From: a virus
Virus genome (UHGV): UHGV-0200285
DNA length: 46,722 nt
Reading direction: 5' to 3' (one strand)
Shown: piece after piece, positions 4,651 to 13,721 of the stretch
How the letters are laid out: each line of letters opens with the position of its first letter
How positions within the stretch are numbered: position 1 is the stretch's first letter
Notes under the pieces: generated by a model
The model's input: only the letters and a program-made list of their open reading frames with translations
Databases searched by the model: none
What the model was told of the DNA's origin: nothing
Program-made: the position numbers and the translations under genes

Positions 4651-4940
4651 GCTATATTAAAGCTTTAACTTCAAGCCCCATCGAATCAAACATGGAGAGT
4701 TTTCATGAATAAACCCGTCTGTCTTGATGACTGGTTGATTGGCTTTAAAAGCTTATGCTGTACTTTGACCTTAATAGCTCTGCTAATAATGTAATAAGCA
4801 AACTCATTGTATCTATGGACATTGTACTGGAAGAAAACATTTTAAACATCAGGCAAAAAACAAAGTCACCCGATAAATAATAAGTAAACTAACATGAATC
4901 CCGTAATGAGATTCAACATCTCTATTACCCTATTTAAAGC

Positions 4941-4966
4941 ACAAAAACCCGCTCATCAGCGGGTTT
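4941..4966 (-). terminator. intrinsic terminator downstream of candidate late promoter (tR'-like)
   Basis: CCCGC-TCATCA-GCGGG hairpin; on minus strand followed by TTTTTGTG; ~60 nt downstream of candidate pR'. Confidence 0.5.
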
Positions 4967-5005
4967 TCTACTTTTTCTTAACTTCGGGTATACAAAGCCC
5001 ATCGT

Positions 5006-5040
5006 TGAAAAAATTTATCCATATTTTTTGAAAAATGCAA
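5006..5040 (-). promoter_or_regulatory. candidate late promoter pR' (Q-dependent antitermination region)
   Basis: Minus strand reads TTGCAT-N17-TAAATT immediately downstream of the Q stop codon. Confidence 0.4.
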
Positions 5041-5071: not shown

Positions 5072-5824
5072 TTATCTCGTCACCTTTCTCAATTGTGCTT
5101 CAGCGTAAGATTCCTCCTGCCAGCACTTTGTAACCAGTTTATCAATGACATTTGCATATCCTTTATACCACTGATAATCACTCAGGTCCGGTACCAGCTT
5201 CTGGACATGATGCCGCGCCAGTGTGGTTGGTAAACGACTAAACCGTTTTCCATTGCAACGCCCACAAATCTTATAAACAGGTGTGCCATGAAGCCGGGTC
5301 CTTTTTTCATCCAGGACAATACCTTTACCCTTACACCCTCTGCACGCTGTGCTGACTTCTCCCTTACCATGGCAATGCTGACATAGTTCCTTCACCCACT
5401 CTTCTTTGATAACAGATTCCCCGCTTCTGGAGTGTTTCACCACTTCGCGCAATACATTATGAAATCCAGTACCAGCACAATGCTCACAACGAGCCTTACT
5501 TGCCGCAGACCTGGAATAATCAGCAAAGGCAAAATTCACAAGGTAAGGAATAATCTGTAGCCGGGTTTCTTCACTCAATTTATTCAATGTCGGGTTATCC
5601 AGTGCCATCGCGTAATTGAGCAGACCTTCAATCGCAAACTGAGGATCCTGAACACCAACTTTTGCCAGGAATAAGGCAAACCCAAGCGGTGCTTTCGATT
5701 GCACCATCCCCTGCGCAGCCATCACATCCGTAATCGTTAAACCACCAGAGCCTGTCGCCGGTGCGTCATCACTCAATTTTGGAGATTTTGGGGAGTAATA
5801 TTTTGGTAAGGCTTCAAGGTTCAT
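5072..5824 (-). CDS. late-gene antiterminator Q
   Basis: 250 aa; Cys-rich zinc-binding C-terminal half (CEHCAGTGF, CQHCHGKG, CRGCKGKG, CGRCNGK); position between nin-like genes and lysis cassette; resembles QuuQ-type Q from memory. Confidence 0.75.
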   Translation of the reverse strand: MNLEALPKYYSPKSPKLSDDAPATGSGGLTITDVMAAQGMVQSKAPLGFALFLAKVGVQDPQFAIEGLLNYAMALDNPTLNKLSEETRLQIIPYLVNFAFADYSRSAASKARCEHCAGTGFHNVLREVVKHSRSGESVIKEEWVKELCQHCHGKGEVSTACRGCKGKGIVLDEKRTRLHGTPVYKICGRCNGKRFSRLPTTLARHHVQKLVPDLSDYQWYKGYANVIDKLVTKCWQEESYAEAQLRKVTR

Positions 5825-5837
5825 GCTCGTTCTCCAC

Positions 5838-6833
5838 TTACGCCAGTACGCCTATTGCCAGCGCACGATCGATAAAACGAAATATCAGCTCCAGCTGGGA
5901 GCCATACTTCTCTTCAAATGCCACGGTATCCGCATGCAGCTCGTCGTGATGCTTTCTGCACAAAGGCAACACAAAAAGGTCATGCGCTTTTGTACCCATT
6001 CCCCCCTGACCGTGGCCTATCAGGTGGTGGGGATCATCAGCAGGTTTTCCACAACATGCGCACGGCTGCGTCTTAACCCAGCGCGTGTACTTTTCATTAA
6101 CCCAGCGGTGACGTTTTGGGCGTAACATAAAAGACTCCGGCGACTCCGGATCCACTTTCAGCGCCAGCACCTTTTTCGCCTTATCCTGGATGATGCTGGT
6201 GGCAGGAACCGAAGGCACAAGGTCACTTTCCCGGGTAACAGACGGCACAACAGGCTTCGGTAATCTCAGTGCCTTACGGGCTGCACTTTCCGGTAAGGCA
6301 TCCGCCAGATCATTACGAATCAGCCACCAGCACAGTTCCGGCATTGTCACAACATGACTGTCATCAAAACCGAGATCCCGACGCACAACAGACAACACCC
6401 AGCGGGCACAGTTATCCGTTGCCATTGATTCCAGCCGTTCCGTGAACTGATCGCGCAGCTGGTTATCGCAGTGCCAGCACAGACGGATTGCGCCCGGAGC
6501 GTGTCGCATTGTTGTCATATTCTCGCTGTGCCAGTCGGAATGAGGCCACTGGCAGCCTTTTTCACGAAGTAACCAGCTTTCAAGACATTCCACGCCACCA
6601 GCACGACGGATCACTGCCTCATTGCGGAACACGGCCCGAACGGCAGGATCATCCGCCAGCGGTTGTGATGCCGCCGGAACGGCACCACTGGCGAAAGATG
6701 AATAACGTTCCGGCTCAGGCTCCAGCAGGACACGCCCCTGCATAAACAAGGGCATCAGCTCTGAACCTGGTCTGAACAATACGATCCCCATACGCGGGGC
6801 AATTTCAGGGGTCAGTAGTGCTCTCACGGTCAC
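5838..6833 (-). CDS. DUF968-type protein with C-terminal HNH-like Cys/His motif (YdfU-like)
   Basis: 331 aa; C-terminus PCACCGKPADDPHHLIGHG...CRKHHDELH; resembles Qin YdfU from memory. Confidence 0.6.
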   Translation of the reverse strand: MTVRALLTPEIAPRMGIVLFRPGSELMPLFMQGRVLLEPEPERYSSFASGAVPAASQPLADDPAVRAVFRNEAVIRRAGGVECLESWLLREKGCQWPHSDWHSENMTTMRHAPGAIRLCWHCDNQLRDQFTERLESMATDNCARWVLSVVRRDLGFDDSHVVTMPELCWWLIRNDLADALPESAARKALRLPKPVVPSVTRESDLVPSVPATSIIQDKAKKVLALKVDPESPESFMLRPKRHRWVNEKYTRWVKTQPCACCGKPADDPHHLIGHGQGGMGTKAHDLFVLPLCRKHHDELHADTVAFEEKYGSQLELIFRFIDRALAIGVLA

Positions 6834-6834
6834 C

Positions 6835-7650
6835 TCAATGAACGGTATCGAGCAGCTTTAACAGCTCAGGGAATCGGGATTCGAAGAAATGCGGCTGCGT
6901 CTCGCGCGGATTTGCAGGACTGGTGATGTTCTTGCCGAACATGCAGCCTTTCGCGGTCAGCGACCAGAATTTTTTGATGTTGTTAATCGCGGTACGACTG
7001 TATCGTTCGCGTTGTTCAACGATCCCCAGCTTCGCCATCTGGTGATATGCCTGATTAGCCGTCAGGCGGATACCATACTGCTTCAGCAGTGCACTCAGCG
7101 ACAGCGTAGGGCGGCTTGAACCATCTGGCGCATCAGCAGGTGCATCAATGGCATAGATCGGCATAAGTTCAGGAAGACCAGCTACCTTTGATAATTTCTG
7201 GTATGCACCAAGTTTCGAGGAGTTTGACAGATTTAGAGTCTTTGCTGCTGATTCAAGCAGAATGACCCCGGATTTAATTTTGTCGGATGTGGTTTCTTCT
7301 GGTGATGAATTATGAAGCGCATCAAAAGTACGTATCACTTTTAAGCTGAATGCCGGGCTGATCCACATTGCATATGCATAGACCAGCTCTTTACAGACAT
7401 ACGTCCCACCATTGCGCCCCTGAATGGTGATGACAGGAATACTACGGGAATCTCCCGTAGTTTCTTCTTCCAATAATTCCACAAGAGCCTTCGTTTCAGG
7501 ACGACGCATAAACTCGTGAACTTCCAGCGAACGGGAGGAGCGATTCTCACCAGCGGCAAGAAGAGCAGCTTTCTGAAGGTCGTTAAGACAGTAGTTAGAT
7601 TCGAAGTACTGGCGCACAGAAACGCCATCAATTACAAGCAACTGATTCAT
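6835..7650 (-). CDS. KilA-N domain protein (antirepressor-like)
   Basis: ORF 6835..7662; ATG at 7650 with GGAG RBS; N-terminal KilA-N-like region (LLVIDGVSVRQYF...GGTYVCKELVYAYAMWISP). Confidence 0.6.
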   Translation of the reverse strand: MNQLLVIDGVSVRQYFESNYCLNDLQKAALLAAGENRSSRSLEVHEFMRRPETKALVELLEEETTGDSRSIPVITIQGRNGGTYVCKELVYAYAMWISPAFSLKVIRTFDALHNSSPEETTSDKIKSGVILLESAAKTLNLSNSSKLGAYQKLSKVAGLPELMPIYAIDAPADAPDGSSRPTLSLSALLKQYGIRLTANQAYHQMAKLGIVEQRERYSRTAINNIKKFWSLTAKGCMFGKNITSPANPRETQPHFFESRFPELLKLLDTVH

Positions 7651-7812
7651 TGGTTTCTCCACAAATTTTTATCCACGAGCGGGACTGCACTCCCTTTTCG
7701 TTGATGCAGGATGAACTTACTGCGATTTTTAATAGTTATCAAGGATACACTGTTCATAAATACAGTATCTTTAACGAGGTAATACCCAAATTTAGGGTGT
7801 TGCTCAATTCCG

Positions 7813-8208
7813 TTACCGAGTTGCTAATTTGCAACTCGCTTTTTCGTACTTACTGATAGTGATCTCGACCTTCCCCTCCGGGATAACCGGTCCCCACTCC
7901 ACCAGCATTCTTTTCACCTGACTGTCGTCTTCCCACACACCCGCGTGGGTCAGGGCGTCAAACAGCGCCTTGTTATAGTTGTCCAGATCGCGGATCCGGT
8001 TATCCGGAGGAAACAACACGATCTCCACTGAAGCAGGTGCCGACGTTGGTTTTGGCAGACGACGTAACTGCTCAACTATTGCTGCACACGCCGCGCTCTG
8101 GAATTTTCGCCCCGCCGCGCTTATCAGGCTCTTACCAGCAAACGCCCCTTTGTTGGGGTGTCGCCAGTACGTGTTCACGCTGGGCGGAAAAGGCAGGATC
8201 AGCTTCAT
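7813..8208 (-). CDS. RusA-like Holliday junction resolvase
   Basis: 131 aa; acidic catalytic-type motif region (PPDNRIRDLDNYNKALFDALTHAGVWEDDSQV) and typical lambdoid nin position. Confidence 0.6.
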   Translation of the reverse strand: MKLILPFPPSVNTYWRHPNKGAFAGKSLISAAGRKFQSAACAAIVEQLRRLPKPTSAPASVEIVLFPPDNRIRDLDNYNKALFDALTHAGVWEDDSQVKRMLVEWGPVIPEGKVEITISKYEKASCKLATR

Positions 8209-8531
8209 ACTTTCAGGCCCCTCTCATGTAACCAGTGGGCTGCACGCAGCCTGGCGTTTTCCTCACCGGCAAGCAGTGAGCGGATAATCCCGACCGCCTC
8301 GCTGTCGTCGTCCTTCACCACGGTATGAAGCGTGATCCCCCGGGCCACACCACGCTTTATCGTGATGACGCCTTTTTTCTCCAGTGCGCGAAGATGCTCC
8401 ACCGCTGCATTCACTGAACGGTATCCCAGCATGGTTGCCACCTCCTGATTGGTTGGCGGGAAGCCACGTTCTTTCTGATAAGAAATCAGCATATCCAGCA
8501 CCTGCTGCTGGCATTGAGTTAAAGTCGTCAT
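8205..8531 (-). CDS. LexA N-terminal DNA-binding-domain-like protein (no peptidase domain)
   Basis: 108 aa; LTQCQQQVLDMLISYQKERGFPPTNQEVATMLGYRSVNAAVEHLRALEKKGVITI resembles the LexA winged-helix domain; lacks S24 Ser/Lys peptidase region. Confidence 0.6.
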   Translation of the reverse strand: MTTLTQCQQQVLDMLISYQKERGFPPTNQEVATMLGYRSVNAAVEHLRALEKKGVITIKRGVARGITLHTVVKDDDSEAVGIIRSLLAGEENARLRAAHWLHERGLKV

Positions 8532-9151
8532 GCCGCCATCTCCCTGACCAGTTTTTCCGCCTGCTGGCGAACCTGCGCCAGAAACGCCTCACCACATGCC
8601 TCAAGTTCATCGCGCCCGATGTAGCTGATTGCCGGTCCCTTCCAGGTCTTGTCGAAAACAGCAATAGCACCAGCGAAGAAAGCGCCTGTCGGCACCTGCT
8701 TCTCATCTTTCGGGATAAACCAGGCAGGCAGTTCAAAACCAATACGCCCGCGAATAAAAGCAATATGATCTGCATCTTCCGGCCACCACACTTCGCTGGT
8801 GGCAGCTTTGATCAGGAAAACATAGCGCCCGCCTTTATCACGCATGCCGGTGATGTATTGCCCCTCATGCTGACTGGCGCGGCTGTATGGGGGATTACCA
8901 AAGGCAGCACCTTTAAGCTCCGCAAGACGTTCTGACCAGTCATGCGCCAGCGCGTTGTCTTCCGCCGTGTAATACGCGGTACATTTGGCGTTATCACCGT
9001 CAGTAAACAGATCCAGGACAAACGGGCCAAACAGGGTGTTAATTCCCCAGAAAATGTTATCCGGCGTGCGCCACTGATCGCCCACTTCCTTCAGTTCATG
9101 GGCTGGTTTGTTCCGCAGCTCCACCAGCTCCTGGCAATATTTATTACTCAT
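8528..9151 (-). CDS. phage DNA N6-adenine methyltransferase (Dam-like)
   Basis: ORF 8528..9184; NPPY catalytic motif (FGNPPYS); ATG at 9151 overlaps upstream stop as TAATG (translational coupling). Confidence 0.75.
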   Translation of the reverse strand: MSNKYCQELVELRNKPAHELKEVGDQWRTPDNIFWGINTLFGPFVLDLFTDGDNAKCTAYYTAEDNALAHDWSERLAELKGAAFGNPPYSRASQHEGQYITGMRDKGGRYVFLIKAATSEVWWPEDADHIAFIRGRIGFELPAWFIPKDEKQVPTGAFFAGAIAVFDKTWKGPAISYIGRDELEACGEAFLAQVRQQAEKLVREMAA

Positions 9152-9639
9152 TAAGCCCCCACGTAATTCCCTGACAGATACCACTCATCACCCGATACAG
9201 CGCGCTTGCTGCTTTTCCGTAAGCACCGCTCACGACGTGCCAGAAAATTGTTTCGTTCTGGCTGGGAGTGGCTTTCACGGAATGCCGCCATCCACACGGT
9301 TGCAGCACGACGGTATAAGCCCCTGGACTCCAGTTCTTCAGCCTGGCGGGTCAGGCACAAAATCACCCGGGGATCGTTAGTGCCGACATAGAAATTGCGC
9401 ACAGGTCTGGTTTCACGAACTGGTTGTGGTTCCGGCTCCTGCGCTCTCTCAGTCAGGCGCGGGAAATGTCTGCGTGTATATCCTTCACAACGGTGAGCCA
9501 CACGCCCACTCTGACGTAACTTGCTTGCAGACTGCAGAACGCGCTGCCGTGAGTAACCTGCAAAAGCATCCGCAATGTCTCCGGAAGTACACCCAGGATG
9601 GGCTTCAATGAATTTCTGAACGTCATTTAACAGACTCAT
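9151..9639 (-). CDS. hypothetical nin-region protein
   Basis: ORF 9151..9645; ATG at 9639 two nt after upstream stop; Arg-rich C-terminal half. Confidence 0.5.
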   Translation of the reverse strand: MSLLNDVQKFIEAHPGCTSGDIADAFAGYSRQRVLQSASKLRQSGRVAHRCEGYTRRHFPRLTERAQEPEPQPVRETRPVRNFYVGTNDPRVILCLTRQAEELESRGLYRRAATVWMAAFRESHSQPERNNFLARRERCLRKSSKRAVSGDEWYLSGNYVGA

Positions 9640-9641
9640 GA

Positions 9642-10460
9642 TCACCCCCTGAATCCTGCCGGGATCTGGCTGTAGTCCACTTTGTCGTAACTGGCTTTGA
9701 AGTACGGGTCCTCGCGTCTGGCTGCAGATACCGCAGGAACTTCCCAGGATTCTTCGAAATGACGATCCGGACCAAAGAACGTGACAGCCTGTTTCACAAA
9801 TTGTGTACCGCTATTGCCCATCGCAGATACCCAGCCCGCGTAGCGATTCACACCTTCCAGCATGGTTTCGGGGTTTACCCCCTCGTTCAAACGGGCTTTC
9901 CAGGCTTTGAAGGCTGCTGATTTTGAATTGCCACCAGCACGTTTGGGATATGCCAGCCATGCCTGCTCAAACTCCGGAGAGTATTCCGGTCGGTTTGAAC
10001 GAACTCGCACAGACTCATCAGCAGATGCACCAACAGCTATTGGTTCATTGACTGATTCTTTGACTGGTTCAAAAGAGTGACTGGTTCTGGGTGAATCTCC
10101 TGCACTACCCCCTGGTGCAACTCCTGCACTACCTGGTGAATTTGCTGCACCAGATAGTGAATTATTTGCACTACCCCCTAGTGAATCTCCTGCACCATCC
10201 AGATGAAGGAGATAGATATTACTTGAGTTACCTTTTTCACCTTTCCGGGTGACTTTTTTTACCAGCCCGGACTCACAAAGGGCCGCAATATGATTCATCA
10301 CAGAACGTTTGCTAATCTCGCACTGGTCAGCAATATGCTGGTAGCTGGGCCAGCACTCACCCTGATCGCTGGCATTATCAGCCAGCTTGATCAGAACCAG
10401 TTTTCGCAATGGATTACCCACTCGAATTTTCATCGCTTTAACCATCAGCTCCATACTCAT
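9642..10460 (-). CDS. replication initiator (N-terminal HTH, Gly/Ser-rich linker, C-terminal domain)
   Basis: 272 aa; N-terminus LRKLVLIKLADNASDQGECWPSYQHIADQCEISKRSVMNHIAALCESGLV (replisome-organiser-type HTH); C-terminal PEFEQAWLAYPKRAGGNSKSAAFKAWKA motif; contains iteron-like DNA repeats. Confidence 0.6.
   Translation of the reverse strand: MSMELMVKAMKIRVGNPLRKLVLIKLADNASDQGECWPSYQHIADQCEISKRSVMNHIAALCESGLVKKVTRKGEKGNSSNIYLLHLDGAGDSLGGSANNSLSGAANSPGSAGVAPGGSAGDSPRTSHSFEPVKESVNEPIAVGASADESVRVRSNRPEYSPEFEQAWLAYPKRAGGNSKSAAFKAWKARLNEGVNPETMLEGVNRYAGWVSAMGNSGTQFVKQAVTFFGPDRHFEESWEVPAVSAARREDPYFKASYDKVDYSQIPAGFRG
10040..10260. repeat. iteron-like direct repeats inside the initiator gene (candidate replication origin)
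   Basis: ~22-bp units starting near 10090, 10114, 10136, 10157, 10181 (e.g. GTGAATCTCCTGCAC perfect at 10091 and 10181); GACTGGTTC repeats at 10063-10087; AT-richer flank 10200-10260. Confidence 0.5.
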
Positions 10461-12379: not shown

Positions 12380-13053
12380 ATGAAAACAATCCATGACATC
12401 CGGCGGTCTAACGCCAGAAAACTGAGAGATGGTGTTGGCGGAAATTCATCCTTTGCCACCATGATTGATCGCGAGCCAACCCAAACCAGCAGGTTTATGG
12501 GGGATGGCGCTACTAAAATATCGGTGACAGCATGGCACGGCACATCGAAAAATGTTTCGACCTGCCTGTCGGATGGCTTGATCAAGAACACCAGACAACG
12601 AACATCACAAAAAAACCTGATGTTTCAATCACTAACAAACAAATAACGTTAGTCCCTGTCATATCATGGGTACAGGCCGGAGCATGGAAAGAAGTTGGCT
12701 ATTCTGAGGTTGATTTGAGCACAGCAGAAACTTATCCCTGCCCTGTACCCTGTGGCGAAATGACTTATATCTTGCGGGTGATTGGTGATTCAATGATTGA
12801 TGAGTACCGCCCTGGAGACATGATTTTTGTTGATCCCGAAGTCCCTGCCTGCCACGGTGACGACGTTATTGCATTGATGCACGATACAGGCGAAACCACC
12901 TTCAAGCGATTGATAGAAGATGGAACACAGCGTTATCTCAAAGCATTAAACCCAAACTGGCCTGAGCCTTACATTAAGATTAACGGTAATTGCTCTATAA
13001 TTGGTACAGTGATTTTCTCGGGAAAACCAAGAAGATACACAATAAAGGCCTAA
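12380..13053 (+). pseudogene. CI-like repressor (HTH plus S24 peptidase domain) interrupted by a frameshift in an A4 run
   Basis: Frame 2 encodes HTH (12380..12516); frame 1 from 12517 encodes NIGDSMARHIEKCF...PVGWLD... and S24-type domain (VIGDSM ... K) to 13053; one extra A in 12515-12518 would restore a ~225-aa protein. Confidence 0.6.
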
Positions 13054-13128: not shown

Positions 13129-13721
13129 AAGAAACATGAGGCAGGCAAGATTCAAACAAAATTTGGTTGCAACACGGCGTATGGCACATGCGTCGTTAGC
13201 GGTCTGGGGACGTTAAAGGGGACAATCCACTTCTTGCTCGGGCAAACAAACCAAGTAGCCGGAATGTGCAAGTCAATGATGATGCTGATAAGACGCCTAA
13301 CCAGCGTGGCGATCCGGTTTGACGCCTGGGAAGAGACCAGGGTGCAACGATGAGGGCATTTATGGAGCCGCGACAAAGTGTGGTGCCGTAACTGGCTAAG
13401 TGCTCTCAGTGTTGTGGTAATCCGCGAAATGGCGCGGCGGTAAGTATGGCGGGGTTACTCTTTCCCCGTTGAGGACACCGGATTGTCAGGTTGACCATAC
13501 GCCTGAGTGACAACCCCACCACAACAGCCACTGCTTTGGCGGTACCAGTTTGTACACTTTCTTCCGGCTGGTACCGCTCTTTTTACAAAACAGAGAAGAG
13601 CATCACCGGACGACGGGCTCATAACCCAATCCATCCGGGCGGCTGCCACCGCAGGTGTTCTTCTCTGTTTTGTGGAGAAACCAACCGACCTTGCAGGGTT
13701 GATATGATGAGGAGCAGCAAA

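Follow-up and report, generated by a model that had tools for sequence, protein, structure and literature searches.

A conserved KilA-N/DUF968 gene pair upstream of Q in a lambdoid-like prophage, with a Ref-like nuclease core and a predicted LexA box

Two adjacent minus-strand genes of UHGV-0200285, a viral DNA of 46,722 nucleotides (nt) that was analyzed over its full length (the window), encode a KilA-N protein and a DUF968 protein and lie directly upstream of the gene for the antiterminator Q. The pair forms a conserved, coupled unit found upstream of whichever type of Q is present, its DUF968 member carries a core that resembles the nuclease Ref of phage P1, and it is preceded by a covarying leader hairpin and, in this phage, by a predicted SOS operator. 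These features are what we add here; the genes themselves are not new, as RefSeq already annotates them by these domain names, and the observation as first stated, two known and widely annotated domain families in a known slot, was real but ordinary.

The reading that we favor, tentatively, is that the pair is a delayed-early module for DNA processing and recombination that in this phage is also wired to LexA. The two genes would then work in lambdoid phages as a single functional unit, coming last among the delayed-early genes ahead of Q; the DUF968 protein would be a zinc-dependent His-Me (HNH) nuclease, its catalytic core closest to P1 Ref, that nicks or cuts RecA-bound, branched, or recombination-intermediate DNA in the lytic cycle alongside RusA; and the KilA-N protein would be its DNA-targeting or regulatory partner. 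The original prediction had offered an anti-immunity or a DNA-processing module, and it is the DNA-processing half that is better supported, by the His-Me/HNH core, the Ref-like structure, and the coupling of a pair that sits beside RusA.

A coupled gene pair ahead of Q

Both genes are read from the minus strand, and the interval first assigned to them, 5838-7650, runs exactly from the DUF968 stop codon to the KilA-N ATG. The KilA-N gene (6835-7650; 271 amino acids (aa)) lies in an open reading frame (ORF) of 6835-7662, and both RefSeq and PHROG place its start at the ATG at 7650; for the DUF968/YdfU-family gene (5838-6827; 329 aa; ORF 5838-6833), RefSeq uses the GTG at 6827, with an alternative GTG at 6833. 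Profile searches bore out both domain names: the Pfam KilA-N profile matches the first protein with an E-value of 1.3e-15, and PHROG 129 ('transcriptional regulator') covers its full length (E 3.8e-109), while the second matches Pfam DUF968 (PF06147; E 3.4e-81; 271.8 bits against a cut-off of 27.8) and, over its full length, PHROG 96 'HNH endonuclease' (E 6.5e-177). Homologues of both genes span 36-100% identity across Enterobacterales and Gilliamella and, judged by this conservation, the two ORFs are genuine genes rather than chance ORFs.

The junction of the two genes (6827-6841, minus strand) indicates translational coupling, since the KilA-N TGA (6835-6837) lies inside the GAGG Shine-Dalgarno sequence of the DUF968 GTG. 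At the other end of DUF968, the junction sequence shows that Q begins 13 nt past the stop codon, and no terminator was found within it. When one genome per species was scanned with a KilA-N alignment, 65 loci were recovered, and in about 44 of the 47 from Enterobacterales and Gilliamella DUF968 follows KilA-N within 10-30 nt, a pairing that persists in Proteus, Morganella, Gilliamella, and Lonsdalea at DUF968 identities of just 36-40%. Among viral contigs with DUF968, a KilA-N-family gene lies directly upstream in 78 of 80, at a gap of 10 nt in 77, and the KilA-N alleles are 65-100% identical beside DUF968 genes that are 98-100% identical. RusA sits upstream of KilA-N in most related loci, and the gene after DUF968 encodes a Q antiterminator in nine of the ten loci tested, drawn from four unrelated Pfam families (PF03589 in this phage; PF06530, PF06323, and DUF1133 elsewhere). 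As the pair stays constant while its neighbors are exchanged, the association points to a functional link rather than to mere synteny. All sampled loci were chosen for carrying KilA-N or DUF968, so RusA-Q sites empty of the pair could not appear among them.

At a coverage of at least 80%, the 3.3-kb block RusA-KilA-N-DUF968-Q is present in 538 of 5426 complete E. coli genomes, and the same block occurs in phages SfV (as orf44/orf45) and SfIV, in Stx2c-converting phages, and in 2H10, Ayreon, and others. Some database entries fuse DUF968 with Q (584-587 aa; P0243, P0244, P0246, P0273) or RusA with KilA-N (401-405 aa; P0186, P0191, P0201); rather than true fusions, they probably reflect gene calling that read through or shifted frame at the tight junctions.

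The pair could be a selfish, free-standing homing-endonuclease cassette, a DNA-binding specificity subunit with an HNH cutter, that has spread among lambdoid phages. Many free-standing HNH genes of phages encode homing enzymes, a mosaic, allelic KilA-N head stands beside a nearly invariant DUF968, and KilA-N domains elsewhere are reportedly fused to nuclease-like T5orf172 domains (Iyer, Koonin and Aravind, 2002). A homing cassette would not, however, be expected to keep a position fixed between RusA and Q across genera, to have KilA-N directly upstream in nearly all DUF968-carrying viral loci (a sample that excludes empty RusA-Q sites), or to include a nuclease with a large conserved extra domain, and we consider this explanation very improbable.

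The DUF968 and KilA-N proteins

The Cys/His cluster that had been noticed at the C-terminus of the DUF968 protein is real and conserved. It belongs to a His-Me/HNH core at residues 256-298 (5934-6062) with CxxC and CxxH(H) zinc knuckles, in which C256, C259, D264-D265-P266-H267-H268, G273, G275, K280, H282-D283, C290-R291, H294, and H298 are invariant in 21 homologues with identities down to 37%. The core has the beta-beta-alpha-metal fold, with the catalytic histidine ending strand 1 and the metal-ligand histidine in the helix. The nearest solved structure is that of P1 Ref (PDB 3PLW), a RecA-dependent nuclease, and the two catalytic cores are similar in sequence as well as in structure. Ref cleaves only RecA-bound DNA and enhances the SOS response (PMC4713147), and a second RecA-dependent HNH-domain nuclease, the early-expressed Gp16 of the S. 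aureus phage ΦNM1, has a CxxC...CxxH layout (PMC12817073).

A profile search of the PDB with DUF968 reached only YbcO (E 0.032), which agrees with the published His-Me group 7 (DUF968 and DUF1364/YbcO), whereas single-sequence searches of the PDB with either protein gave nothing useful. The authors who defined group 7 noted RusA, Q, and antirepressor genes among its neighbors and suggested a role in recombination or repair (PMC5714182). The HNHc_6 match is marginal (26.8 bits against a cut-off of 26.6), a precomputed PF16786 match exists in only two DUF968 homologues, NCBIfam has no model for either the KilA-N or the DUF968 protein, and PADLOC returned no defense-system match for the nuclease and a weak KilA-N domain match only.

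Upstream of the core lies an N-terminal domain of about 200 aa that contains a conserved CQ...H...LCWH(C/H)DN motif (residues 92-122; 6462-6554) and is folded in the model, with a predicted local distance difference test (pLDDT) score of 75-93 over residues 52-195. No NinB/Orf-like domain, the mark of Orf-HNH fusions, was found at the N-terminus of the DUF968 protein. We also considered the N-domain as a second, degenerate His-Me finger; the motifs are in register, but the hhalign E-value of 0.059 is not significant and we keep it as a lead only.

HNH proteins are also known as terminase partners in HK97-like phages (background in PMC12817073), and the DUF968 protein might accordingly be a packaging accessory that aids cos cutting by terminase, like HK97 gp74. 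Genes of the gp74 type adjoin terminase, however, whereas on the prophage map some 10 kb separate DUF968 from the terminase genes, and related prophages carry lambda-type nohA/terminase large-subunit genes. Terminase of the lambda type has its own cos nuclease, and a packaging role is scarcely credible.

In the KilA-N protein, residues 1-113 (7312-7650) form a KilA-N/APSES-like DNA-binding domain, identified both by the profile match and by its APSES-like fold. The model (pLDDT 75) continues from this N-domain through a helical stretch and a disordered DAPADAPDGSSRPT linker to an alpha/beta C-domain at residues 181-266. Sequence conservation is centered on the C-terminal region (residues 120-271; 6838-7293): the last 150 residues are better conserved than the head, GKNITSPANPRETQPHFFES is nearly invariant, and Pfam has no family for this C-terminal domain. 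A full-library search with the C-domain yielded 804 clusters at 50% identity, and among 95 representatives the N-terminal heads joined to it were Rha (34), Bro-N (17), KilA-N (11), AntA (8), ORF6N (6), and P22_AR_N (1). By this domain composition, the protein falls within the Bro/KilA/Rha/Ant class, a shuffled group of DNA-binding 'regulator/antirepressor' proteins from phages.

The KilA-N leader and predicted SOS control

The 162-nt spacer between RusA and KilA-N contains a predicted LexA (SOS) box, TACTGTATTTATGAACAGTG in minus-strand reading, at 7748-7767. Scored with a weight matrix derived from 19 SOS boxes of E. coli that do not come from a curated file, it is the best site in the window, at 21.6 bits. 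Only three sites in the window exceed 12 bits, the other two being a tandem pair before a DinI-like gene, and the site ranked after them reaches 10.0; matches to the strict core CTGT-N8-ACAG number five in the window against 0.53 expected. From its start, 117 nt upstream of the KilA-N ATG, the box runs to 5 nt upstream of the -35 hexamer of a promoter-like element, a putative sigma-70 promoter of the KilA-N-DUF968-Q unit at 7714-7742 (minus strand; -35 TTGATA at 7742-7737, 17-nt spacer, -10 TAAGTT at 7719-7714), so that the element carries a predicted LexA operator in silico. In ten related loci from other species, a box scoring 12 bits or more lies between -75 and -165 relative to the start codon, and such boxes are, by our own count, about 25-fold enriched over the remainder of the same loci (about one per 20 kb).

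A spacer alignment from 11 species revealed a shared order: a CTG/GTG-N10-CAG box, 4-6 nt, TTGAAA, 17 nt, TAAnnT, about 20 nt, the hairpin, a GTGGAGA Shine-Dalgarno sequence, and ATG. In E. coli variants of 91-94% identity the box, both hexamers, and the hairpin are unchanged and the differences fall elsewhere. An alternative promoter (TTGAGC/TATTAC, 7807-7779) was dropped, as it is not conserved in relatives, and a plus-strand 68-aa ORF at 7650-7856 was rejected as a gene, its frame being broken by an 11-nt deletion in those same variants.

The leader hairpin, ACGA..GGGA-GUGCAG-UCCC..UCGU, lies at 7675-7701 (core 7681-7694; minus strand), 30 nt upstream of the KilA-N ATG. Most loci from Enterobacterales and Gilliamella (about 40 of 47) have such a hairpin 18-85 nt before the KilA-N start, within the last RusA codons in short-gap alleles. 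Its loop is (G/U)UGCAG, replaced by GUACG or AUACG in Proteus and Morganella, while the stems differ by locus (GGGC/GCCC, GGCGG/CCGCC, GUCGG/CCGAC, CCAGUGA/UCGCUGG, UUAUCUGUUC/GAGUAGAUAA), several of them with G-U pairs. Instances were selected by the presence of at least three pairs beside the loop motif; across the 19 distinct sequences the four innermost pairs form without exception and pairing extends to 84% of all cells; covariation scores 0.80, compared with 0.23 in shuffles (0 of 500 exceeding it) and no more than 0.34 for slid partners. Rfam contains no family that matches it, and it is present in the minimum free energy fold, but with an energy z-score of -0.16, no better than shuffles. 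As the core stem has 4-5 bp and no U tract follows, it is not a typical terminator, and we rejected an intrinsic terminator as unlikely. On the plus strand, some 22 nt upstream of the yfdP start (13723), a hairpin at 13686-13701, CGACC-UUGCAG-GGUUG, has the same type of loop; the same GTGGAGAAACCAA string precedes both hairpins, and two other strains retain the second, with G-C in place of a G-U pair.

With its own putative promoter and predicted LexA operator, the unit in this phage should be activated directly by DNA damage, probably together with Q, and a Ref-like nuclease made after damage could reinforce the SOS signal and so help to commit the prophage to induction. The wiring could be still more elaborate. 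Two genes upstream of the LexA box, the window encodes a 108-aa protein (8205-8531, minus strand) that consists of a LexA DNA-binding domain (Pfam LexA_DNA_bind, E 2.9e-19) without the S24 cleavage domain, and the NCBIfam lexA model matches it over positions 1-91 of 203 only. Its recognition helix, RSVNAAVEHL, closely resembles that of host LexA, RSPNAAEEHL, and the protein may be an uncleavable LexA look-alike or mimic; across loci, its gene and the LexA box showed no strict co-occurrence. In a LexA-gated KilA-N-HNH-Q operon, damage would directly turn on the Ref-like nuclease and Q, bypassing or reinforcing the CI switch, the hairpin would bind a regulator, perhaps one of the two proteins, and the 108-aa protein would shut the operon. 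We give little credence to this full scheme.

Such a strong predicted box ahead of the KilA-N gene would also suit an antirepressor under SOS control, comparable to Gifsy GfoA, 186 Tum, P1 Coi, or SPC32H Ant and directed against the phage's own or co-resident prophage repressors, with the nuclease functionally separate. This would be the anti-immunity half of the original prediction, and we regard it as unlikely though not far-fetched. The AntA, P22_AR_N, Bro-N, and Rha heads to which the C-domain family is fused are typical of annotated antirepressors, and in K-12 Qin the slot upstream of ydfU presumably holds rem in place of a KilA-N gene. Rem is a Qin-encoded antirepressor (PMC10448788), and in Gifsy phages the replication genes are followed, about 1.3 kb downstream, by a LexA-controlled antirepressor operon that is well clear of the immunity region (PMC3121763). 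In this phage, however, the cognate repressor is YmfK-like with a Peptidase_S24 self-cleavage domain (E 1.4e-26; the gene is frameshifted in the window), so that no antirepressor would be needed for SOS induction. Most alleles, moreover, have no promoter or LexA box of their own: in 72 of the 80 near-identical DUF968 loci neither is present, and KilA-N follows RusA by 34-46 nt in the pR operon, where it would be expressed only after derepression and so cannot trigger it. An antirepressor also leaves unexplained the tight, near-universal coupling to an HNH nuclease, and the KilA-N protein has no sequence similarity to any proven antirepressor.

The constant place of the pair immediately upstream of Q, whichever Q family follows, raises the question of whether the KilA-N protein regulates transcription or the timing of Q and the late genes, possibly autoregulating itself through the leader hairpin or GTGCA motifs. 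Its APSES-type DNA-binding head, the 'transcriptional regulator' label of PHROG 129, the conserved fixed-loop hairpin before its gene, and the finding of no terminator ahead of Q all fit such a role. The label is nonetheless an annotation rather than a tested function, no operator for the protein was identified, and the conserved catalytic HNH nuclease as an obligate partner is left unexplained; we find a timing regulator improbable.

We return to a DNA-processing and recombination module, against which several observations weigh. On the side of the nuclease, the likeness to Ref is confined to about 80 residues of the catalytic core, Pfam RecA_dep_nuc (PF16786) does not match the DUF968 protein at an E-value of 0.01 or less, the Ref-style disordered basic N-terminus is absent, with a folded domain instead, and at D283 an aspartate replaces the usual HNH asparagine. 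On the side of the pairing, adjacency could come partly from common descent of one phage module, and outside Enterobacterales and Gilliamella proteins with the same C-domain do not adjoin a DUF968 gene, which makes the pairing lineage-specific and indicates that the C-domain does not need the nuclease. As for SOS control, the LexA box lies upstream of the -35 hexamer rather than over it, and a consensus scanner reported no promoter in the RusA/KilA-N spacer; the putative promoter is weak by consensus and below the scanner's threshold, and we propose it from its conservation across species. The LexA-box spacer is carried by only 186 of 5426 E. coli genomes and by 6 of the 80 near-identical viral loci, and from this rarity SOS control would be an add-on of this allele and not the core function of the pair; that it is an accessory feature is plausible on the sequence comparisons. 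Within the searchable literature, we found no functional study of the pair and no experiment on either protein.

Prophage setting and comparison with named systems

The whole window looks like a complete Qin/SfV-like lambdoid prophage. On the minus strand, the order is an HTH_36 replication-type gene (9642-10460), PerC/YfdN (9151-9645), Dam methylase (8528-9184), the LexA-domain protein, the RusA Holliday-junction resolvase (7813-8208; Pfam RusA, E 6.4e-15), KilA-N, DUF968, the Q/YdfT-type antiterminator (5072-5824; Pfam Antiterm, PF03589, E 1.5e-53), cspF/cspB, and lysis genes. Elsewhere the window encodes an integrase (18938-20173) and a CI-like repressor of the S24 type, and it holds a CII-like gene and lambda-like structural genes at 25-46 kb. 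With its T run on the plus strand, a hairpin at the RusA 3' end (7817-7848; CGAGTTGC-N6-GCAACTCG) reads as a terminator of antisense transcription rather than of the RusA operon. Just 3' of Q, at 4900-5030, Rfam gave sub-threshold matches only (isrK, STnc370, leader-like), and a strong plus-strand hairpin resembling a terminator lies at 4944-4967; the region is presumably that of the late promoter and terminator.

In the gene for the CI-like repressor (12380-13053, plus strand), which is homologous to YmfK and includes an S24 peptidase domain, an A5 run at about 12515 lacks 1 nt, and the gene is split. Residues 1-46 and residues 47-224 both match YmfK of another strain identically, though in two separate frames; either the gene is truly inactivated by mutation or the homopolymer was misread in sequencing. 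The DinI-like gene (20685-20933, plus strand) is preceded by two tandem LexA boxes (20624-20671) of 20.2 and 19.8 bits that overlap a TTGACA...TAAAAT promoter, and is a second, independent unit of the prophage predicted to be SOS-controlled. In related prophages, LexA boxes of 20-27 bits recur downstream of Q and upstream of replication genes; relative to the KilA-N start, they lie at +3164 (locus L007), +2950 (L022), +2459 (L042), and +3889 (L049), and about 3.4-3.7 kb upstream in L012, L015, and L039. A protein of 646 aa that has DUF4365 and TPR repeats (16835-18775, plus strand) is encoded between the early-left genes and the integrase, in a slot that in E. coli O55:H7 CB9615 holds the defense gene dsr1; it is a candidate defense moron, its PADLOC PDC-M02A matches being weak.

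The KilA-N/DUF968 cassette lies directly upstream of Q in many prophages of E. coli, Shigella, and Salmonella, including Stx2c-converting phages, in which toxin and lysis genes are driven by Q. Should the nuclease be Ref-like, it might influence the strength of the SOS response, the frequency of induction, and the antibiotic-triggered release of phage or toxin; a LexA-gated route to Q, if true, would give the decision to lyse a second input. What emerges is mainly a testable, widespread two-gene unit with two cis elements, the LexA box and the leader hairpin, and not a new kind of system; the cassette is a clearly delimited target for experiments, above all in Stx and Shigella phages.

Among named systems, Gifsy dinI-gfoA, 186 tum, and P1 coi likewise have a LexA box and promoter outside the immunity region (PMC3121763; P1 coi annotation). 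Those phages, however, have uncleavable repressors and small, unrelated antirepressors, whereas the repressor here is of the S24 type and the pair lacks the box in most of its alleles. Lambda NinG (Rap) and NinH occupy the same slot before Q and likewise combine a nuclease of the His-Me superfamily with a small DNA-binding protein (PMC4118853, PMC5714182), but they show no detectable sequence relationship to the pair and their gene order is reversed; since RusA is also present here, DUF968 is not simply a substitute for Rap. ΦNM1 Gp16 shares the CxxC...CxxH HNH layout of the DUF968 protein (PMC12817073), whose own HNHc_6 match is marginal as given above, and the Orf-HNH fusions related to Gp16 were described by Curtis et al. 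2014. E. coli YdfU (Qin) and YbcO (DLP12; PDB 3G27) belong to the same His-Me finger group 7, YbcO being a 96-aa core only. P1 Ref, the closest in catalytic core, is regulated through the C1 repressor rather than LexA and is encoded without a KilA-N partner gene; it has 186 aa with a disordered basic N-terminus, whereas the 329-aa DUF968 protein carries a folded N-domain of about 200 aa.

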